A DNA stretch of 64,000 bases from Promethearchaeota archaeon (lineage in GTDB: Archaea > Asgardarchaeota > Lokiarchaeia > Sigyniarchaeales > SOKP01). The stretch is taken from the NCBI GenBank assembly GCA_048938855.1, contig JBHLLT010000002.1:320001-384000 (forward strand). Direction: 5' to 3'. Position numbers and translations under genes: made by a program. A model generated the notes under the pieces. That model was given only the letters and a program-made list of their open reading frames with translations. It searched no databases and had not been told where the DNA came from. Each line of letters starts with the position of its first letter. Position 1 is the stretch's first letter. Positions 7,667 through 18,415 of this stretch are shown piece after piece.

Positions 7667-8446
7667 TTAATCATCTATCATTCTTTTATGCCCTTTTGGG
7701 CAAATTCCATATGTGCAATCATAAAAACCATCATCATACTCTTCTCTAGCATCATAATGCTCCCAACAATAAATTTTATCACATTCAGGGCAATAAGCAT
7801 CCAACCCTTCATATCCATGGTGTTTTTTCATAAAATTATGAACACCTAATAAATCTCTTTTAAGTAGGATTTCAAATAATTCATACGCTAATTTAATACT
7901 CATCGATCGTTCATGAGTAATCCCTCGAAAAACTAATGCTTCTTTTTCATCAAATCTTCCATAACCAATCTTAAATTCAACAGCAACTTTACCACACTCA
8001 GAACAGGGGAGATGATATTCTAAGTCAGAGATTGTGATAACTTTCTCGATTTTCTTTACAGTTTCTTTTTGAATTAATAGATTTTCAAATACATACCAAA
8101 ATGCATCCCAAGAATCCTTAAAAGCCTTTTCGATTTTAATTATAAGATCTAATGATTTGTTATTGTCGAAAATTTTAAGCTCACTTATTATTTTCGACAG
8201 TATATTTCTAGTAGCATATAAGTAATTTTTTGAACTGGCAATCTCATTTTTGCTTAATTTAACATTCGGGTTTAATATTTCTAAAGCAGTAAAAATATTA
8301 TAATAAAATTCTTTTACATCTGATATCCATAAATTTTTGGTTGTATCATCTAATTCTTTGAGATAATTAAAATAGTTAATAATTTCTTCTTTAATTTCTT
8401 TAATCTCAATAAGATGATTTCTAATATTCAATATTGGTTCTTTCAT
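7667..8446 (-). CDS. hypothetical protein: helical N-terminus plus Cys/His-rich C-terminal domain
   Basis: CSECG, CPECDKIYCWEH and CPKGH. Confidence 0.75.
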   Translation of the reverse strand: MKEPILNIRNHLIEIKEIKEEIINYFNYLKELDDTTKNLWISDVKEFYYNIFTALEILNPNVKLSKNEIASSKNYLYATRNILSKIISELKIFDNNKSLDLIIKIEKAFKDSWDAFWYVFENLLIQKETVKKIEKVITISDLEYHLPCSECGKVAVEFKIGYGRFDEKEALVFRGITHERSMSIKLAYELFEILLKRDLLGVHNFMKKHHGYEGLDAYCPECDKIYCWEHYDAREEYDDGFYDCTYGICPKGHKRMIDD

Positions 8447-8487
8447 AAGGATTATAATTAAATCCTTTTTATTTAACTAAGGTATTT

Positions 8488-8955
8488 TTATAGAATTTTA
8501 TTCTCATCTATACTATTAAATAATTCTGTCCCACAACGAACACAATTTTTTTCGTACCATGAAAATGGATAATTACATTTGGAGCACAGCCATCGATCTT
8601 TCTGCTTAAATAACCACTCTTGAACCCCAATTTCCTTTATTATATCTAAACTATGAATTGCGACTTTAAGATGAGCTAAGTTAGTATTTTCGAGTCTCTT
8701 TATATTCTCACAAGGAAATTCGGGACAATTATTGCAGAAATCGATATCTTTAGATTGAGCACAACTTCGAATTCGACATCCACGACAATTTTCAAATACT
8801 AATTCACTTTTACAACCATAGCACTTGATTTCCTTACCATCAAGTGGGTCAATCCAATCTTCTGGTAAACAATCATCACGGTTTTGTGTATAAGCATTCA
8901 TAATGAAACAAGCACCACAATAAAGTCCGCAATAGGCATCAAATCGAAATTTCAT
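8488..8955 (-). CDS. DUF3795-like Cys-rich protein
   Basis: YCGLYCGAC...CYGC...CRIRSCA...FCNNCPEFPC. Confidence 0.8.
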   Translation of the reverse strand: MKFRFDAYCGLYCGACFIMNAYTQNRDDCLPEDWIDPLDGKEIKCYGCKSELVFENCRGCRIRSCAQSKDIDFCNNCPEFPCENIKRLENTNLAHLKVAIHSLDIIKEIGVQEWLFKQKDRWLCSKCNYPFSWYEKNCVRCGTELFNSIDENKIL

Positions 8956-9208
8956 TATATTTTATGTTTTATTTTTATAAAAATAAATACAAAATAATTA
9001 GATAGTCTTTTAATTAATTTATTGAGACATTTTTATTTCATAATATTTTGATTTTTTGAAATATAAAATTATAATATAAATTCCTTATTTCTTAAATTCC
9101 GAATATTATATTTACTAATGATTAATAGAACTAATTAATAAATTCAATGTATAGAATTTATTAAAATAGAACTTATTTAAATATCAAATAAATAAAACAT
9201 ATGATAAA

Positions 9209-9985
9209 ATGAACAAAAAAGAATATTTACAGGTATTTAATCTGCTAGGTTTTATTGCAACAGTGATTGTTAACTTTTTGGCTATATTATTACCAATTGG
9301 GGGGATGACTACTCAAGAATTATCTGATGCCATACCTAACTTATTTGTACCAGCGGGGATTACTTTTTCAATTTGGAGTTTAATTTATATCTTTTTAGGA
9401 ATATTTTCTGTTTATCAAATTAGAGATATAACTAAAGAAGATAAAATTGAAATGAAATTTGTCGATAATATCGGATATTTTTTCATTATTGGAAGTTTAG
9501 CTAATATAGTGTGGATATTTGTATGGCATTATCAATTAGTTCCAATATCTCTAATCTTTATGATAATTCTATTGATTTCTTTATTATTTATATATCTGAA
9601 ATTAGATATAGGGAAATCAGAAGTTCGTAGAATCGAAAAAGTTGCTGTACATGTTCCATTCAGCATATATTTAGGCTGGATAACTGTTGCAACAATAGCT
9701 AATGTTACAGCAGTTTTAGTTGTCTTCGGTGTAGAAGGTTTTGGCTTAGTAGCAGAAATTCTAACTATTCTAGTAATTGCAGTTGCTTTAATCATTACAT
9801 TTGCGATGTTATTGATAAGAAAAGATTATGCTTACAGTCTAGTTATAGTATGGGCCTTATTAGGGATCTTTATAAAACAAAGTATTGCTGATCCTGCAAT
9901 CGCTATAACTGCTTTGATTTCGGGGATTTTAATACTAGTAGGAATTGTATATATTATTATTCGAGAAAAAGTATTGCGTAAATAA
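9209..9985 (+). CDS. TspO/MBR-related tryptophan-rich membrane protein
   Basis: FVPAGITFSIWSLIY, NIVWIFVWHY, PFSIYLGWITVATIAN. Confidence 0.8.
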   Translation: MNKKEYLQVFNLLGFIATVIVNFLAILLPIGGMTTQELSDAIPNLFVPAGITFSIWSLIYIFLGIFSVYQIRDITKEDKIEMKFVDNIGYFFIIGSLANIVWIFVWHYQLVPISLIFMIILLISLLFIYLKLDIGKSEVRRIEKVAVHVPFSIYLGWITVATIANVTAVLVVFGVEGFGLVAEILTILVIAVALIITFAMLLIRKDYAYSLVIVWALLGIFIKQSIADPAIAITALISGILILVGIVYIIIREKVLRK

Positions 9986-10004
9986 TTTTTTTCTTTTCTT
10001 TTTT

Positions 10005-11027
10005 TTAACAATAATCAGAGACTTTGACTCTAATTTTTTCATTAATGTCATACTCTTCATCAAAAGTTTTTTCTATATTCATTTTCTTTATGTTCTGAGA
10101 TTTTTTAAGTAATAAATATGGTAAATGAAAACCATAACGATCTTTTAATTGAGAAATGATTATTCTTAAAGGAATTTTAATTATCTCCGGAACACCACTT
10201 CCTTCAGTTAAAACAGTTTTACAATGCGTTGTAATAATGGAATTAATTTCTTCTGTGCACAAAACGCTTAAGTGTTTATCTGTGAAACGTGCTAATTTAT
10301 ATCCATTAATGTCTACACACAAAATTTTATAATTAGGTATTCTGCTAAGAATAGCACTTCTTTTATCTTTATAATACTTCTTATACCCAATATAATTATA
10401 ATTAGACTTTTTATGCTCAAAGAAAGGTGCAAAATGAAGTCCGTATGGTGGATCAATTATTTTCCTTCCTAAAACATTCATATAATAGATTCGCCCCCCA
10501 TATAAAGAATGAACGCGTTTCTCCATTCCTAACACCCCTAGTCCTTCTTCATTTTGAGGATTCTTTTTATACGAAACACATGTTCCATAGCCATTAAAGA
10601 TCCATAATGTATATATATCTTTATAAGAATAGCTATGTGTTCGTTCAATTAATTTTCTTTTACTAATTTGAGAGTTTTGACATTCAATAACAACCTTCTT
10701 TCCATTTTTTAATTCGAAATATACATCTGCGATTTGATCTCCAACCCTTAATTCAATTTTTTTTGAAGAAATTTGATTAAATTTTGGAAACATCATATAC
10801 CAGTATGCTTTCATGGTTTTGTGTTCTATAGTTTCTGGTTCAAAACAATAATTCCTACCTCCTTTATGCAAAAAGCAACCCAAGTCTGAATTATAAAATA
10901 AGGGCTTTTTACAAACTGTACAAAGCCAAGTATAATTTTGAGGATCAGAAGGTAAACCATCTAATATATTGAAAACATTTCCTAACTCAAAATTAAAAGC
11001 ATGAATTATTCTCTTTTCTTTTTCCAT
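10005..11027 (-). CDS. CoiA-like PD-(D/E)xK nuclease
   Basis: N-terminal CTVC..FLH...C..EPET.EH, then IADVY...VVIECQNSQIS...ERT.SY....IYTLWIF (CoiA-type AD...IECQ signature). Confidence 0.8.
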   Translation of the reverse strand: MEKEKRIIHAFNFELGNVFNILDGLPSDPQNYTWLCTVCKKPLFYNSDLGCFLHKGGRNYCFEPETIEHKTMKAYWYMMFPKFNQISSKKIELRVGDQIADVYFELKNGKKVVIECQNSQISKRKLIERTHSYSYKDIYTLWIFNGYGTCVSYKKNPQNEEGLGVLGMEKRVHSLYGGRIYYMNVLGRKIIDPPYGLHFAPFFEHKKSNYNYIGYKKYYKDKRSAILSRIPNYKILCVDINGYKLARFTDKHLSVLCTEEINSIITTHCKTVLTEGSGVPEIIKIPLRIIISQLKDRYGFHLPYLLLKKSQNIKKMNIEKTFDEEYDINEKIRVKVSDYC

Positions 11028-11162
11028 TTCTCATTAACAATAATTAAAATGTAAAGGATTTTTACCTAGATATCACAAATTTACTATTTAAACCTAAAAC
11101 TTATTAGTTATTCCACAAAATCTACACCCATTATAAGAAGAGTAAATATGACTAGAAATTTT

Positions 11163-11184
11163 TTGCACTGTAGTAGTTTAAAAA
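11163..11184 (+). promoter_or_regulatory. putative promoter: TGTAGTAG abutting a TTTAAAAA TATA box
   Basis: TTGCACTGTAGTAGTTTAAAAA; TATA begins 30 nt before the ATG at 11207; resembles 13812-13831. Confidence 0.45.
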
Positions 11185-11206
11185 TAACTTTGATTTTTTT
11201 AGTTTT

Positions 11207-11647
11207 ATGACAGAAATTCAAAAAAATCAGCTAAAAAAAATAATTTCTAATTCTTCAAAAGATAATCCATTGAAATATATCGATGGTCCTAAGGAAAAAA
11301 CGCATACCCAAAACAGTAAAATAAAAATTAATTACCAGCATGGACCCAAAATTTACAGACAAGGTGACATTTTATTCAAGAAAATAGAAAATTTCCCCAG
11401 TCAGTTAAAGCAAAAACCTGATAGAGTAGTTGCTGAAGGAGAAGAAACAGAACATGCTCATGTTCTTGTTAATGGTGCTCTATTCGAAGTATTAAATTCA
11501 GAGAAACTATATATAAAATCAGAACAAAATACGAGAATCATTCATGAGGAGCACCTACCAATCAAATTAGAATCTGGAAATTACCAAGTAATTAGACAGA
11601 GAGAATATTTAGGACCGGGATTAGAAACTCGAATTGTAAGAGACTAA
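11207..11647 (+). CDS. His-rich small beta protein of the YRQGD/HEEH/RQREY family (usual DUF6745 partner)
   Basis: YRQGDILF, AEGEETEHAH, IIHEEHLPIKLESGNYQVIRQREY...RIVRD. Confidence 0.8.
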   Translation: MTEIQKNQLKKIISNSSKDNPLKYIDGPKEKTHTQNSKIKINYQHGPKIYRQGDILFKKIENFPSQLKQKPDRVVAEGEETEHAHVLVNGALFEVLNSEKLYIKSEQNTRIIHEEHLPIKLESGNYQVIRQREYLGPGLETRIVRD

Positions 11648-11674
11648 GTTTATAAAAAAGATAGGATAATTGAA

Positions 11675-11983
11675 ATGACAGATGCAGATTATTATATAAG
11701 CTTACATGAAAAAAACAAGAATTATTTAGAGAGCTTAAACTTAGATTTTGGAGCAAGAGGGTCTACTAGAATTATAGATAGAGATGGGGAGAATTTATTG
11801 GTTGAACTAACCAAGAGAGGTTCAAATACAATTACTAGTTATCGATATATAAGAGTTAAAGATTCTTCAACTGGAAAAAATATTTTTTTAAGTGTGCCTA
11901 ATAGAATAAGTTCATGTCGAGAAGCAGTCTCATGGACTTTTGGTCTTAAGCCTTCAGAATACGATTTATTATTTGAAACATAG
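11675..11983 (+). CDS. DUF6745-like protein (C-terminal subdomain only)
   Basis: RYIRVKDSSTGKNIFLSVPNRISSCREAVSWTFGLKPSEY....ET matches the remembered LRVPP...AREAVAWTFGL...Y.P..ET pattern. Confidence 0.75.
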   Translation: MTDADYYISLHEKNKNYLESLNLDFGARGSTRIIDRDGENLLVELTKRGSNTITSYRYIRVKDSSTGKNIFLSVPNRISSCREAVSWTFGLKPSEYDLLFET

Positions 11984-12028
11984 TTCTTTTATAATTTTTT
12001 TAATTTTTTTGGAAGTTTTTAAACGATC

Positions 12029-13759
12029 ATGGTTGAAACAGCTTCTATTGTTGATTATTTTTACCAAAATGGTTATATAGATAACAAAAATTCATCTAAT
12101 TATGTTGAACTATTTCATGATCTTGTTATCCAATTGATTAATGAGGAGAAATACGAAGAATTAGTAGATTTATGTTATGATGTGTTTTCTTTTGATCCTA
12201 ATATAAAACTCATTCAAAAATTAATTTATACTTTAGTAAATCTTGAAGCAAACAAGAGTGTTGTTGATTTATGTGAACTATATATTAAAAATAAAAAAGA
12301 CGATGAAATATTCTATGATGCTATCAATGAATTTTTAAAATATGATAATTTTCTGGGAGCAATTGATTTATGCCGGATGTATATAAGAGTTAATCCAAAG
12401 GGCAATCTAGGATTTATTCGTACTATGATCTTGGCTTCACTTAAAAAAAATATTAAATACCCTAATGTTTTTGAATTGATTGAAGAACTCTTAGAACTGA
12501 ACCATGGAATCAACTTTATATATAATTTAATTTATTCGATGTTAGAGGTACAGAATTACGATACAATAATTAATATTATTAAGTTAGTTTTGAAATCTAA
12601 CTCTGAAGAAAAGCTTTCTTTATTGCATATTGTAAATATTCTATTTGAAAATGGAAAACATGGAAGCGCTTGGGAGCTGTGTAAGAAATTTCTGATATTA
12701 TATCCTTCTTCTGTAGATGTATTAACTTTATATGGGAGAATCCTTACAAAAAGAGGGGAATTTCAACAATCACAAATTCTCTTTAATTCAATATTAGAGC
12801 AAATTCCATCTTCTAAACCAAGATTAAAAAGCAGAATGCTTAATTTTATAGGTTGGAATTATATCCAACAAGGAGATTGGAAAAAAGCTACTAATCATTG
12901 TATCAAATCCACGAAGTTAAACCCACAATATCCAGAATCTCTAAATAATCTAGGTCTTATTTACTATAAAAAAGGTTATGTTGAAAAAGGAATAAAACTC
13001 GTTAAGAGAGCATTAAAATTAAACCCGAATCTATGTCAAACATGGGTTAATCTAGGAAAAATCAATCTTGAATTAAGAAATTATTATGATGCTTTTACAG
13101 CAAGTTACAATTGCCTTTCTATTAATAATCAAAATCAAGAAGGGATTTCACTATATAAAAACCTGTCAAATAATCCAGATATAAAAATACTTAGTTTTCT
13201 TATACCAAAATTGATAAAATTGGGGTATAGGTGTGTATTTGATTATTTGAATGAAACAATATTCCCACATAAATTGCTAAAAAATAATAGATATATAGTT
13301 TATTCCAGAGAATTCTTAAATTTCTTGAAAAAAGTAAGATTAGCACAGATGTACTTAAACGATTTTGTTGCTATTTATTGTTGGCTTCCAAAGTGCGAAA
13401 AGTGTGAAAGCTTGTTGAAAATTTATGGCGAAAGAATTAATTATAAAGATGGTTCTAAAACAAAAATGTATCGTTGTGAGAATTGCGGAAAAGAAAAAAG
13501 AAGTGTTGAACAGTTAGATAATGAAAACATACCTTACTTAAAATTACGAGTTATTTTACACTCTCCTTTACAAATCCCTAATAAAAGTACCCAATTCTAT
13601 TCTAAATTAGACTATGAAAGCATTTTTATAACCTATTCCAACTTAGATGTAATTCAGAACATTTCAAACTCCAAAACTGCAGAACTAATTGATAATTTAA
13701 AAAATGCAGTACGAATATATGGGGAAGACATTCAAAAAAGACTTTTAGAAATCTCTTAA
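12029..13759 (+). CDS. TPR-repeat protein with C-terminal zinc ribbon
   Basis: TPRs (LNNLGLIYYKKG...ALKLNP, WVNLGKINLEL) and CEKC...CENC. Confidence 0.85.
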   Translation: MVETASIVDYFYQNGYIDNKNSSNYVELFHDLVIQLINEEKYEELVDLCYDVFSFDPNIKLIQKLIYTLVNLEANKSVVDLCELYIKNKKDDEIFYDAINEFLKYDNFLGAIDLCRMYIRVNPKGNLGFIRTMILASLKKNIKYPNVFELIEELLELNHGINFIYNLIYSMLEVQNYDTIINIIKLVLKSNSEEKLSLLHIVNILFENGKHGSAWELCKKFLILYPSSVDVLTLYGRILTKRGEFQQSQILFNSILEQIPSSKPRLKSRMLNFIGWNYIQQGDWKKATNHCIKSTKLNPQYPESLNNLGLIYYKKGYVEKGIKLVKRALKLNPNLCQTWVNLGKINLELRNYYDAFTASYNCLSINNQNQEGISLYKNLSNNPDIKILSFLIPKLIKLGYRCVFDYLNETIFPHKLLKNNRYIVYSREFLNFLKKVRLAQMYLNDFVAIYCWLPKCEKCESLLKIYGERINYKDGSKTKMYRCENCGKEKRSVEQLDNENIPYLKLRVILHSPLQIPNKSTQFYSKLDYESIFITYSNLDVIQNISNSKTAELIDNLKNAVRIYGEDIQKRLLEIS

Positions 13760-13811
13760 AATATTAAAAATATTCACTCTGTCCGATTTAATAATCAAAG
13801 ATTATATCATA

Positions 13812-13831
13812 TTGTATTGTAGTACTTAAAT
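13812..13831 (+). promoter_or_regulatory. putative promoter: TGTAGTAC abutting TTAAAT
   Basis: TTGTATTGTAGTACTTAAAT upstream of the helicase; similar to 11163-11184. Confidence 0.4.
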
Positions 13832-13864
13832 CCATTCTACTAATATAGTTAAAACAAATCTATC

Positions 13865-15793
13865 TTGATTAATATGGTAACTAGCCTCTCGTATATGGAT
13901 TTTTTTCCATACCATTCATATCGTCCAGAACAACAGGAAATTATTCGCGAAATAGAATTAGGTGTTCGATTAAAAAAAAATATATTATTAGTTGCCCCTA
14001 GTGGAGCAGGAAAGACTGTCACTGCTCTAAGTGCAATTCTCCCTCAAGCCTATGAAAATGAATTAAAGATTATTTATTTATGTAGGACTCATACTCAATC
14101 TGATAGAGTTATTAATGAATTAAAAAAAATTCATTCCTCAAAATTAAAAATAATAGGGTTGTCTTTAAGAGGAAGAAGTGAAATGTGTTTAAATTCTTCC
14201 CTGTTTATTTCAAAACTCACACCTATGGATGCAATGTTGACATGTTCAGATTTAAGAATTAGTGAATCGTGTAAATATTTTAATAAATTCCATAATAGTA
14301 AAAATCCTGAAGATATTTCCCATTTTACAAGTCCACGAGATGCCCAAGAACTAATTGAATATTGTAAGGAAAAAGAATATTGTCCTTATTATTTTTGTAA
14401 ATATATTTTGAATAAAGCTCTAATCATTGTTTGTAACTTCCAATGGATGTTTAATCCCAGTATTCGCTTCCAAATTTTAAATTTATTAGCAACTTCTTTG
14501 GAGGACTGCATAGTAGTCATAGACGAATGCCACAATGTTGCAGATATGGCAACTAAAGTCAAATCTCATAGATTAACACTATCCTTTCTTGAGTCATGCT
14601 TTCAAGACCTAAAGAAAAGCGTACTTCCTCCTCAGTATTCCCAGGTTGTATACTTCTTGATAAATCTCCTCAAAAATAAATGCAATAGATATACAAATAC
14701 AATTAGTATTAAACTAGATCCATTCAAGTTATTTACCAAAATGTCTCAATCTTTAGAGATGAATATAGCTAACGAGTTTGAGAAATTAGATTTTTATTTT
14801 CAAAATCTACCGATAAAAACTCGAATCGAATTAAATAGAGTGCGGATATTAGCAAGGTTTTGGCAAAACTGGATTGAAAAATGCAAATCTGATAGATATT
14901 TCTTCTGTTACCATATAATTCGAAAAAGTAATGAAAAAGCAATTTCTTTAGAAGTAGTAGCATTGGAACCACGTGAAGTTACAATACCTCTCTTTAGGCA
15001 CACCCATGCCTGTATTAATCTTACTGGAACGGTTAATCCTTATATCTTTAAAACTTTAACTGGTTTAGATAGAAAGTATTCTGGATATAAAGAAATAATC
15101 GCTAATTCTCCCTTTCATAGTAAAAACATCAAAGCTTTAATAACTGAGGGAGTAAGTACTAAATTGAAAAAAAGAACACCAATGATGTACAATAAAATGA
15201 TTCAAAAAATCGAAGAAGTTATTGATGGTACTCCCGCTAATGTCGCTATATTCTGCGCGTCATACGAAATTCTTAAAGATTTAATCTTAAACGGTCTTGA
15301 AGAAACTGTTAGAATTTATGGAAAAAAACTCTTCATTGAAGAATCAGAAATGTCAGGATCTATGAACGCCACACTGATAAAGAAATATAAAAATTTTGGC
15401 AAATCCGGGAATGGTGCGGTATTACTTGGTGTATGTGGTGGTAGGAACTCAGAAGGGGAAGATTTCCCCGGCAATGATATGAATTCTGTAATAATAGCTG
15501 GTATCCCATACCATCTCATTACTCCCCAAGCAGAAGCTCGGATAAACTATTATAATAAAGCCTTCTTTGGTCAAGGATGGCTTCTAGGATATTTATACCC
15601 CGCTATGCAACGAGCAAACCAAGCAGCAGGAAGACCAATACGAAAAGAAAAAGACAAAGGCGCTATAATCTTTTTAGATTCTAGGTTTAAAACCAAAAAA
15701 AAATGGATTTCAGATTGGATAAGAAAGGAAATTGAAGTAGTACCAGATGAAATTAATGGTATTACTCGGCGATTAAAAGGATTTTGGCTATAA
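13865..15793 (+). CDS. XPD/Rad3/DinG-family Fe-S DNA helicase
   Basis: Q motif YRPEQ, Walker A APSGAGKT, four Fe-S Cys (MCLN, TC...SCKYF, YCPYY), DECH, SEGEDF, QAAGRPIR; likely ATG at 13874. Confidence 0.92.
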   Translation: MINMVTSLSYMDFFPYHSYRPEQQEIIREIELGVRLKKNILLVAPSGAGKTVTALSAILPQAYENELKIIYLCRTHTQSDRVINELKKIHSSKLKIIGLSLRGRSEMCLNSSLFISKLTPMDAMLTCSDLRISESCKYFNKFHNSKNPEDISHFTSPRDAQELIEYCKEKEYCPYYFCKYILNKALIIVCNFQWMFNPSIRFQILNLLATSLEDCIVVIDECHNVADMATKVKSHRLTLSFLESCFQDLKKSVLPPQYSQVVYFLINLLKNKCNRYTNTISIKLDPFKLFTKMSQSLEMNIANEFEKLDFYFQNLPIKTRIELNRVRILARFWQNWIEKCKSDRYFFCYHIIRKSNEKAISLEVVALEPREVTIPLFRHTHACINLTGTVNPYIFKTLTGLDRKYSGYKEIIANSPFHSKNIKALITEGVSTKLKKRTPMMYNKMIQKIEEVIDGTPANVAIFCASYEILKDLILNGLEETVRIYGKKLFIEESEMSGSMNATLIKKYKNFGKSGNGAVLLGVCGGRNSEGEDFPGNDMNSVIIAGIPYHLITPQAEARINYYNKAFFGQGWLLGYLYPAMQRANQAAGRPIRKEKDKGAIIFLDSRFKTKKKWISDWIRKEIEVVPDEINGITRRLKGFWL

Positions 15794-15944
15794 ACACCCT
15801 CCAATAGAGAATTCTCTTTTAAAGTATCATTATTTGGAAAAAGTCTATTCATTTGCTTTAAAAGATTAATTTAATAAATAAAATTTATTATAAAAGACAA
15901 TTCAAATAATATTATAATACGAGATTCTTTAGGTGCTATAAATT

Positions 15945-16169
15945 ATGAAAAAAAGAAATATTGGATTTATTTTGTTTGGCGTAGCAGGTGTTAATCTTAT
16001 CACACTCGCAATATCCCTACTAGTCTTTCCGAGATTATATACTCAACTGGGAATGCCCTTAGCAGCGGTTAGAATTGCAATGGCCACAATTCTAATAACT
16101 AGTCTAGTAGTAATATCTGTCTTAGTATGTGCTGGAATTATCGTACTTATAAAATTTTGGAATAGGTAA
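15945..16169 (+). CDS. small 2-TM membrane protein
   Basis: Two hydrophobic stretches; ends 12 nt before the GGR-family gene. Confidence 0.6.
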   Translation: MKKRNIGFILFGVAGVNLITLAISLLVFPRLYTQLGMPLAAVRIAMATILITSLVVISVLVCAGIIVLIKFWNR

Positions 16170-16181
16170 TTATTTTTAGTC

Positions 16182-17351
16182 ATGTATGATGTCATAATTA
16201 GTGGTGCTGGCCCCTCAGGTTCTCAATGTGCTAAAGTAATCGCTGAGGCAGGATATAAGGTTGCTTTGGTTGAAAAAGATGTGAACTGGAGGAAACCATG
16301 TGGAGGTGCTGTTCATTCTAGTGTTATAGATGTATATCCTCAGTTGAAAAAACTTATTAGCTCTAAAATACGGGGAGTTGTAATATATTCAGCAGATTAT
16401 CATAAGCTTGAATTTAAAGGAGTAAGTAGTGAGTATTCTGTAATTATGGATAGAATAGAACTTGATAACATAATGAGAGATAGTGCTGTTGATGCTGGAG
16501 CTGAACTTTTTGATAACCATATATCATTTGATTATCTCATGAAAAATCAAAAAAAAATTGGAATAAAAACAAAAATAAAAACTAACACTGAAGAGTTTCA
16601 TGGAAATATTATCATAGTAGCGGATGGTATGAGTTCTAAATTAGCTGTAAAATCAGGAATAAGGTCAAAATGGAATGTTAATGAACTGGCTATTGGAAAA
16701 TGTTCAATTATGGAGGGAAATCATGGATTAGATCCGGAAAGTGTTTATATCTACTTTAAACCTTTTCAAGGGTATGCTTGGATATTTCCAATAAACAATA
16801 AAAGATACAATATTGGTATTTTTACATTTGGTATAGATAATTCAAAATATAATATACATAAAATATACCACGAGTTTGTAAATAATTTAAATGTTAAACA
16901 ATATGTTTCCAAATCAAATAATAAAACCATATGGTCAAGTTCATATTCATTTCCCGCAGAAGGAGTATTGGAAAAAAGCCTTTATGATGATAATTTAATG
17001 CTTATAGGCGATGCTGGAGGATTTGTTTCTCCTATAAGTGGTGAAGGAATTCAAACTGCCGTCCTCTCTGGCAAAATTGCAGCAGAAACTGCTATAAAAT
17101 CTTTGCAAGATGAAGATTATTCACGAACATGTCTTAAAACGTATAGAACTAACCGAGAAATAAAAACAATTATTAGGAATTTCAAACAAAAATCTTCGAT
17201 GATCCATTTCTTCTATGAGAATGAAGGCAAAAATCTAAATAAAATGCTTGGATTGGCTGAGATAGATCCAGTATTTAGGGAACAAGTAGTAAACATGTTT
17301 GCTTTTGGAGAAATGCCTTCAAAAGATTTTATTTCAAAAATTAATGAATAA
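16182..17351 (+). CDS. geranylgeranyl reductase-family flavoprotein
   Basis: GAGPSG, KPCGG, VADG, GYAWIFP, GDAGGFVSPISGEGI. Confidence 0.9.
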   Translation: MYDVIISGAGPSGSQCAKVIAEAGYKVALVEKDVNWRKPCGGAVHSSVIDVYPQLKKLISSKIRGVVIYSADYHKLEFKGVSSEYSVIMDRIELDNIMRDSAVDAGAELFDNHISFDYLMKNQKKIGIKTKIKTNTEEFHGNIIIVADGMSSKLAVKSGIRSKWNVNELAIGKCSIMEGNHGLDPESVYIYFKPFQGYAWIFPINNKRYNIGIFTFGIDNSKYNIHKIYHEFVNNLNVKQYVSKSNNKTIWSSSYSFPAEGVLEKSLYDDNLMLIGDAGGFVSPISGEGIQTAVLSGKIAAETAIKSLQDEDYSRTCLKTYRTNREIKTIIRNFKQKSSMIHFFYENEGKNLNKMLGLAEIDPVFREQVVNMFAFGEMPSKDFISKINE

Positions 17352-17548
17352 ATTTCTATTATCAATTACTTTTGATAGATATGACATCCTTGGAGTATTT
17401 TATAAATAATATTTAAGAAAAAAATAATTTAGCTTCCAATAGAGCTATGTTTTAACTTTTCACCTTTCAAATATGGTTTTATTTATAATTTATTTATAAA
17501 CAAATAGTAATATTTATTTTAAAAAAAAATTCTATTCTTTGTTAATTT

Positions 17549-17565
17549 ATCACTCCTCTCCCTCT
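17549..17565 (+). promoter_or_regulatory. C-rich upstream element shared with 58744-58760
   Basis: ATCACTCCTCTCCCTCT vs ATCACCCCCCTCCGTCT, 14/17 identical. Confidence 0.35.
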
Positions 17566-17633
17566 GTACTCCTTTATTTCGTAAAAACACAACCTTTAAA
17601 TATGTCAGTTAATACTTATATAATAACGTATTG

Positions 17634-17667
17634 ATGTAAACCTTTGATTGACAACCAAAGTTTACAT
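17634..17667 (+). promoter_or_regulatory. 34-bp imperfect palindrome/hairpin in the grpE leader
   Basis: ATGTAAAC-C-TTTG-A-TTG-A-CAA-C-CAAA-GTTTACAT, downstream of TTTAAATA (17595-17602). Confidence 0.6.
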
Positions 17668-17704
17668 TTGAAAATTGGGGTTTAAAACTCAAAAAATTAA
17701 AAAT

Positions 17705-18415
17705 ATGACATATAATATTAGAAAAGAAATGGGAGATATAAGACCTATGGCATTTGAAGACTATTTTGACAGATTTATAGGTGATCGCGGTTCTCCTCGT
17801 ACAGGATCAAATCAAATTTTAGTTTCGCGGACTGAGTTTGAGAAGCTTAAAGCGAAAGCTGACAAGTATGAAGCGTTAGTGGAGGAGCATAAGAAAATTA
17901 AGACGCAAAATGATCGACTTCTTAAAGAACTCGATGATATGAAAGAGGATGGTCGCAAATTCAAAGAACTAATGGAAGAAAAGGAGAAATTTATGAATTC
18001 ACTTTTGCGAGTCCGTGCTGATTTCGAAAACTATAAAAAACGTTCGGAGCGTGAAAACAGCAGGTATCGAGCATATGTAATGGAGGGTATTTTAAAGAAA
18101 TTAATCGATCATTATGATGATTTAATTAGGGCTTTAAATTTATTAAAAGTCCTTGAGAATATGGATGGGATTAAGAATGGTTTTGAAATAATCGTTAATA
18201 AATTTGAAAAATTACTTGATGAGGAAGGTGTCAAGCCAATGAACTCGGAAGGAGAGAAATTTGATCCATATAAACATGAAGTAGTAATAGTAGAAGAAGG
18301 TCGAGATGATCTCCCTGAAAATACTATATTGGAAGAAATAGCTAAGGGTTATTACTTTAAAGATAAAGTATTACGGCCAGCAATGGTCAAAATCTCAAAA
18401 AACTCAAAGTTATAA
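17705..18415 (+). CDS. grpE: nucleotide exchange factor GrpE
   Basis: RVRADFENYKKR, FDPYKHE, KGYYFKDKVLRPAMVKISK; start uncertain (TTG 17675, ATG 17705 or later). Confidence 0.93.
   Translation: MTYNIRKEMGDIRPMAFEDYFDRFIGDRGSPRTGSNQILVSRTEFEKLKAKADKYEALVEEHKKIKTQNDRLLKELDDMKEDGRKFKELMEEKEKFMNSLLRVRADFENYKKRSERENSRYRAYVMEGILKKLIDHYDDLIRALNLLKVLENMDGIKNGFEIIVNKFEKLLDEEGVKPMNSEGEKFDPYKHEVVIVEEGRDDLPENTILEEIAKGYYFKDKVLRPAMVKISKNSKL

Follow-up and report, generated by a model that had tools for sequence, protein, structure and literature searches.

A probably composite locus in a Lokiarchaeial genome: a resident CoiA-family nuclease gene next to a variable slot with a phage-type gene cassette and an XPD paralogue

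The DNA analysed here (the window) is a stretch of 64,000 nucleotides from a Promethearchaeota (Lokiarchaeial) genome bin (G000:C49:320001-384000; 97% complete, 7.05% estimated contamination), and it contains a block of five genes that an earlier note had taken for one co-regulated system. The distribution of these genes in related genomes does not bear this out: the CoiA-like nuclease gene is resident in genomes without the others, and the small gene pair, the cassette of which the pair is a part, and the helicase gene each occur apart. With a probability of roughly 0.68, we consider the locus to be a composite of a resident CoiA-family nuclease, a cassette made of a phage-type gene pair and the gene of a TPR protein with a C-terminal Zn-ribbon domain (TPR-Zn), and a dispensable XPD paralogue (XPD2), the last two located in a variable slot. 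The three units would have separate histories, and cassette and XPD2 would lie together only because a minority of genomes have both of them in the one slot that separates CoiA from GGR. The lead of an "undescribed five-gene defence system" is thereby removed, and three separately testable units are obtained instead.

The five open reading frames (ORFs) themselves are intact and located as described earlier, with successive gaps of 179, 27, 45, and 105 bp, the last of which becomes 114 bp with the corrected start codon of XPD2. The earlier domain calls were likewise reproduced, i.e., PF06054 for the nuclease, the end of DUF6745 (below threshold) for the second small protein, TPR and Cys-rich regions for the third, and DEAD_2, Helicase_C_2, and TIGR00604 for the helicase. 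The features are as follows.

10005..11027, minus strand: CoiA-family PD-EXQ nuclease, 340 amino acids (PF06054)
11028..11206, intergenic: between divergent genes; contains a 16-nt motif (copy 1)
11207..11647, plus strand: small1, 146 amino acids, beta-rich (phrog_27831); first cassette gene
11675..11983, plus strand: small2, a mini-DUF6745 protein of 102 amino acids (sub-threshold PF20530)
12029..13759, plus strand: TPR-Zn, 576 amino acids; third cassette gene
13760..13873, intergenic: contains the 16-nt motif again (copy 2)
13865..15793, plus strand: XPD2, Fe-S XPD/Rad3 helicase paralogue; probable start at ATG 13874
15945..16169, plus strand: protein of 74 amino acids with two transmembrane segments, between XPD2 and GGR

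The resident nuclease gene and the variable slot

CoiA-like genes were found in 23 of 24 sampled genomes of the genus, compared with none of 16 genomes from other genera of the order. The backbone around the gene reads nitroreductase, DUF8328, DUF3795, membrane protein, CoiA (minus strand), and then GGR, GrpE, and DnaK. CoiA occupies the same syntenic position, with the other four genes absent, in G003, G005, G006, G009, G014, G015, G020, G023, and G024, the copy in G024 being a diverged copy rather than an orthologue. The CoiA-like nuclease gene belongs to the resident backbone of the genus and lies outside the insert formed by the other four genes, and because it keeps its position in genomes lacking these four, its membership in a five-gene system is unsupported.

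The insert small1-small2-TPR-Zn-XPD2 was present in the CoiA-GGR slot in 6 of 54 genus genomes (G000, G007, G011, G055, G059, and G065) and additionally on three metagenome contigs, always in the same slot and with the same flanks. Neighbourhood conservation, proposed earlier as a check of the five-gene idea, holds for the four insert genes in these six genomes; the presence of CoiA does not depend on the insert. In genomes devoid of the insert, the interval between CoiA and GGR/GrpE measures 178 bp (G020 and G023), holds an M29 peptidase gene (G006 and G009), or contains unrelated unknown genes (G003 and G005). The insert-bearing genomes are not monophyletic in a tree of backbone genes, where G065 clusters with G006 and G009, which lack the insert (support, 1.00); because these two carry the peptidase, the slot evidently turns over and the block is dispensable. 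Conservation of the insert is largely a matter of vertical inheritance. Insertion of a mobile element was considered and rejected, since no flanking or terminal repeats were detected at the insert borders, no tRNA in window positions 1 to 30000, and no integrase-like family among the genes. The intergenic DNA of empty and filled sites is too diverged to be aligned.

In the window, the block is bordered by a multi-pass membrane protein on one side and by the 74-residue transmembrane protein and GGR on the other; the gene of the 74-residue protein occurs in some insert-bearing genomes only, being absent in G065 (L046) and at empty sites. All five genes are under purifying selection, with ratios of nonsynonymous to synonymous substitution rates (dN/dS) of 0.07 to 0.30, similar to those of the flanking genes (CoiA-like, 0.17 to 0.19; small1, 0.11; small2, 0.07 to 0.30; XPD2, 0.10 to 0.18). 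An Rfam search of window positions 8000 to 18000 gave no match. Further upstream, positions 7667 to 8446 (minus strand) encode a 259-residue protein (DUF8328 by its call on L046) in which several CxxC pairs occur; it is a conserved backbone member adjoining the DUF3795 and nitroreductase genes.

The CoiA-like protein matches the CoiA_nuc profile PF06054 with 40.8 bits (cut-off, 20.3), the alignment covering profile positions 1 to 81 of 158 only. The active site of CoiA is of the PD-EXQ type with a conserved Arg (PMC1189080), with the catalytic D located in beta2 and the E in beta3 (PMC13663708). In an alignment of 15 sequences comprising three paralogue types, residues E65, H69, K73, E92, D101, E115, Q117, and R129 are invariant, and a PD-EXQ active site with the conserved Arg is present as D101, E115-x-Q117, and R129. 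An N-terminal CxxC followed by a downstream His, which may correspond to the small zinc finger at the N terminus of the CoiA family, is seen in types a and b, not in type c. A sequence search against the PDB returned nothing at E <= 1. Because the PD-EXQ signature, the N-terminal Cys/His cluster, and the long C-terminal region are all kept, the label "CoiA-like nuclease" is, as far as sequence can tell, well founded. By homology to CoiA of Bacillota, the protein would most likely be a recombination endonuclease with structure specificity, the action of which does not depend on the neighbouring genes. The genus as a whole has three types of CoiA-like paralogues (a, b, and c); the type-c copy of G000 (G000:C34:214797-215417, L004) is 35% identical, lacks the N-terminal Cys cluster, and is interrupted by an in-frame TAA.

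The small1-DUF6745 pair and its cassette with TPR-Zn

The small1 protein belongs to no Pfam family; it matches phrog_27831 and falls into mostly viral clusters of a protein atlas. Its alignment displays the invariant signature RQGD...GE-x3-H-x-H...H-x-EH...QRE, and the protein would carry a His/Glu metal site. The predicted structure is beta-rich, with predicted local distance difference test (pLDDT) values of 80 to 93 in the core, and comparison of this fold with the PDB revealed no convincing relative (Foldseek E >= 0.3; VIA Z <= 3.1), only faint yippee/CULT and cupin rows being returned. The neighbouring small2 protein scores 21.7 bits with DUF6745 (PF20530), below the cut-off of 27 and over positions 138 to 203 of 206 only, as it retains just the C-terminal ~70 residues of that family. 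DUF6745 partners in other Asgard families comprise 182 to 202 residues and pass the PF20530 cut-off; those of phages and bacteria comprise 331 to 567 residues.

The small1 alignment was scanned over one genome per species and IMG/VR, which yielded 160 loci (L055-L214) from Actinomycetota, Omnitrophota, Ktedonobacteria, Melainabacteria, Planctomycetota, Asgard archaea, and viral contigs. Of these loci, 156 have a DUF6745-like ORF next to small1 on the same strand, and Pfam confirmed DUF6745 in all five full-length partners tested. CoiA, XPD, or the TPR protein of the present locus stands beside the pair in only five loci, all from this genus, and about 150 loci are without any of them; on viral contigs, the pair is located next to replication genes or terminase. 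A literature search retrieved no paper mentioning DUF6745. The pair is a widespread, uncharacterised, near-obligate two-gene module, and its description in the earlier note as uncharacterised and mainly bacterial or phage-borne agrees with the 160-locus scan, the viral clusters, and the literature. Because the two genes are almost always adjacent in phages and bacteria, the products of small1 and small2 would most likely work as a complex. Some loci deviate from the usual arrangement: the small1 and DUF6745 genes of L135 are separated by an inserted HNH endonuclease gene, and G004 has a stand-alone small2-like gene (L043:9527-9892; G004:C113) encoding a 121-residue ORF with 49% identity, no small1 being found in that genome. 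In a further Asgard family (G033, L041:12770-16702), small1 and a full-length DUF6745 gene lie about 2 kb from the gene of a 1310-residue TPR and SIR2_2 protein, a defence-like architecture.

The third protein, TPR-Zn, combines TPR family matches with a CxxC...CxxC region and a C-terminal domain (residues ~385 to 576; window positions 13181 to 13759). This domain is rare: a word search found 12 close relatives, an exhaustive HMMER search of 1.84 billion proteins found 14 cluster representatives, and it occurs in 7 of 154 genomes of the order. More distant relatives of TPR-Zn (P0154-P0159) are 38 to 50% identical, and a metagenome scan added only two distant loci, both on contigs under 2 kb. 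The model of the domain (mean pLDDT, 66) weakly resembles a minimal Pol-beta-type nucleotidyltransferase, with Z scores of 7.5 for 3c18 and 7.2 for Hailong HalB that lie within the range which the tool calls common for unmatched models. The alignment shows no invariant Asp triad. An NrdR-like Zn ribbon (weak match) is inserted in the model, and one of the five models was decent.

The three genes small1, mini-DUF6745, and TPR-Zn would form a cassette, of which the first two were presumably derived from the phage/bacterial pair. Outside the slot, the cassette was found in genome G046 (L215:8125-10571; G046:C124) with gene order unchanged, intergenic gaps of 32 and 39 bp, and protein identities of 56% (small1), 48% (a mini-DUF6745 protein of 102 residues), and 31% (TPR-Zn), followed by a 143-residue ORF lacking a family match. 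There it is flanked by genes for an EamA transporter, an M50-like peptidase, and an UPF0182 protein, with neither XPD nor CoiA nearby, and the only XPD of G046 is the core copy on another contig. Besides the pairing of small1 and DUF6745, this is the only linkage seen again in an independent context, and it can be missing: L060 has the mini pair without TPR-Zn. TPR-Zn would be a lineage-specific adaptor and, considering the gaps of 27 to 45 bp, is probably co-transcribed with the pair.

The XPD2 helicase and its upstream region

XPD2 scores 103.7 bits with DEAD_2 (PF06733), 124 bits with Helicase_C_2 (PF13307), and 289 bits with the rad3 model TIGR00604 (cut-off, 247). As had been stated before, it is an intact Fe-S XPD/Rad3 helicase by its motifs: Walker A (APSGAGKT), the DECH box, the four aligned Fe-S cysteines, and motif VI QRANQAAGRPIR are all present in the alignment with core XPDs, in which a short deletion in the Arch region is the sole visible difference. 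Translation more likely starts at ATG 13874 than at TTG 13865, giving 639 residues, as called in the orthologue on L046.

A second XPD, 51% identical to XPD2, is encoded on contig C34 of G000 and is of a type found in nearly every member of the genus; XPD2 is retained in 8 of 54 genus genomes. In maximum-likelihood trees, XPD2 forms a long-branched clade separate from the core XPD clade and comprises XPD2-A (G000, G007, G011, G055, G059, and G065) and XPD2-B (G003 and G067). In a better-sampled tree, it is the sister of the core-XPD clade of the genus (99.6/100), and a 100/100 split sets both apart from XPDs of other families. Because of this placement, XPD2 is judged to be a duplicate of roughly the age of the genus, i.e., an extra paralogue and not the core XPD, as the phylogenetic check suggested earlier was meant to establish. 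Compared with the core copy, it has diverged somewhat more rapidly (65 versus 76% identity in G065; 74 versus 83% in G055). A segmental duplication of the core XPD locus was rejected, as core and XPD2 loci have no neighbours in common.

The XPD2-B loci of G003 (L008:1-13400, G003:C2) and G067 (L048, C57) share a gene for an unknown 183-residue protein upstream and an RPA-like OB-fold gene downstream. Between XPD2-B and the type-b CoiA gene of G003 lie an unknown gene of 570 codons and an Arf-family GTPase gene. XPD-family content is variable within the genus: G011 (97% complete) has XPD2 and no core-type XPD was found in it, which reflects either an assembly gap or XPD2 as the sole XPD, and many genus genomes, not including G000, possess a third XPD/DinG-like family with open frames of ~810 to 850 residues and 25 to 27% identity (e.g., G002:C9:16569-18365 and G004:C130:6441-8240).

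The 16-nt motif that the earlier note had seen in two promoters is present at positions 11163 to 11178 and 13812 to 13827, upstream of small1 and XPD2, respectively. With its degenerate positions opened to N, it has no other occurrence in the 3.95-Mb genome. The first copy stands directly upstream of a TATA-like TTTAAAAAT box and the second upstream of a TTAAAT box, so placed that both sites are plausibly promoters. The shared regulation read into the motif found no support, however. At the small1 upstream site of G007 and G011, the GTAGTA core is replaced, each site's flank and downstream TATA-like box are conserved, and within one genome the two sites agree at 8 to 9 of 16 positions only. 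A shared operator was rejected in view of this phylogenetic footprinting, despite the uniqueness of the motif. The region 13760..13873 probably contains a promoter of XPD2's own. Catalytically intact by its motifs and equipped with such a region, XPD2 would most likely be a dispensable 5'-3' repair helicase with a specialised or back-up role, an activity predicted from sequence.

Alternative readings and comparison with known systems

Several observations weigh against a composite origin of the locus. The order and tight spacing of the four insert genes are kept in the six genomes down to 54 to 65% protein identity, a pattern to be expected also if cassette and XPD2 were functionally linked, as they may be. 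In G003, XPD2-B stands between two TPR proteins of different architecture in a locus devoid of the cassette, so that XPD2 is again found beside TPR proteins, and a CoiA paralogue is located 6 kb away, separated from XPD2-B by two functionally unknown genes and the one for the Arf-family GTPase. Moreover, the backbone tree was computed with FastTree only, from genes next to the slot.

One rival reading takes the four-gene insert for a single functional accessory module acting in DNA surveillance, in repair, or in defence against viruses, with TPR-Zn as sensor or adaptor, XPD2 as motor, and CoiA as a mere positional neighbour. This arrangement would fit the conserved order and spacing in the six genomes and three metagenome contigs (down to 54% TPR identity), the patchy occurrence in a slot with turnover, the phage-derived part of the content, the purifying selection on all genes, and the weak resemblance of the TPR C-terminal model to nucleotidyltransferases including the defence protein HalB. 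Every instance, however, traces to one slot in one genus, i.e., to a single origin with vertical inheritance, and the parts are separable: the cassette occurs without XPD2 in G046, and XPD2 without the cassette in G003 and in G067, where XPD2-B has no adjacent TPR gene and contains an in-frame TGA. The promoter-like region in front of XPD2, the lack of conservation of the shared motif, and a HalB-type match of a Z score that unmatched models commonly reach argue in the same direction. Nor did PADLOC-DB 2.0 single out a defence system: CoiA-like, small1, small2, and TPR-Zn had no match at E <= 0.1, and XPD2 matched only PDLC01439 (type IV DinG) with 298 bits. This match is generic, because core XPD scores similarly on the same model (283 bits) and the curated Csf4 model TIGR03117 fails (17.3 bits; cut-off, 400); the earlier statement that no named defence system has this make-up was thus upheld. 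We regard the four-gene module as rather unlikely, and its more specific form, in which cassette and XPD2 would constitute an undescribed DNA-surveillance module of Lokiarchaeia consisting of a domesticated minimal phage-derived pair, a TPR-Zn sensor, and a dedicated XPD motor, as distinctly doubtful.

Much less credit is due to the five-gene system, in which CoiA and XPD would be joint effectors, the TPR protein the sensor, and the small pair a metal-binding accessory, all under a shared promoter motif. Adjacency of the genes around a divergent promoter region, the restriction of the motif to two sites in the genome, the CoiA paralogue near XPD2-B in G003, and the existence of helicase/nuclease pairs such as RadA/CoiA and ComM/YraN (PMC13663708) speak in its favour. 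Against these stand the at least nine genomes in which CoiA keeps its position without the other genes, the presence of CoiA in nearly all sampled genus genomes versus XPD2 in 8 of 54, and the divergence between the two motif sites in G007 and G011. In addition, no type-a or type-b CoiA was found in the 93%-complete assembly of G067, which has XPD2-B, and the type-b CoiA loci of G005, G018, and G022 have no XPD nearby. Because neither G067 nor these loci display the pairing, the proximity of XPD2 and CoiA in G003 is not conserved, and a conserved proximity was rejected. The distribution data largely refute the five-gene reading, which we consider very improbable. That the block stems from mis-assembly or contaminating DNA is hardly conceivable: the contamination estimate of the bin and a GC content of the block (0.27 to 0.28) slightly under that of its neighbours could point that way, but the same block with the same flanks is found in five other independently assembled genus genomes and on three metagenome contigs, and the window lies more than 300 kb inside its contig.

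Bacterial CoiA (PF06054) is a D-loop resolvase of transformation that works with the helicase RadA in Bacillota (PMC13663708; PMC1189080). The Asgard protein likewise passes PF06054 and shares the PD-EXQ variant, the N-terminal Cys/His cluster, and the long C-terminal extension; it differs in being archaeal, whereas CoiA has been reported as restricted to Bacillota among bacteria (PMC13663708), in occurring as three paralogue types in one genus, and in having no conserved linkage to a helicase gene. The family, recently found to resolve recombination D-loops in Bacillota, is extended by a full-architecture homologue belonging to the core genes of an archaeal genus.

Archaeal and eukaryotic XPD (Rad3; TIGR00604) and XPD2 have the Arch/HBB and Helicase_C_2 domains in common, along with the four Fe-S cysteines and the complete set of helicase motifs. 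XPD2 differs in being a second copy on a long branch, with a short deletion in the Arch region and a patchy distribution in the genus. Eukaryotes, in which XPD is part of TFIIH, have their closest known relatives among the Asgard archaea, and a selectively retained XPD duplicate of the age of the genus illustrates the evolutionary plasticity of this helicase family in Asgard archaea. The DinG helicase of type IV-A CRISPR systems (Csf4) belongs to the same helicase superfamily, as reflected by the PDLC01439 match, but XPD2 fails TIGR03117 and its neighbouring genes have no Cas-like family match.

The pair of phages and bacteria (phrog_27831 with phrog_31813/PF20530; function unknown) consists of the same two families, adjacent and on the same strand. 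In contrast to it, small1 of the present locus has an additional N-terminal extension of ~45 residues, and its DUF6745 partner is cut to the last ~70 residues (102 amino acids) and followed by the TPR-Zn gene. The archaeal mini version delimits the conserved core of the small1-DUF6745 module.

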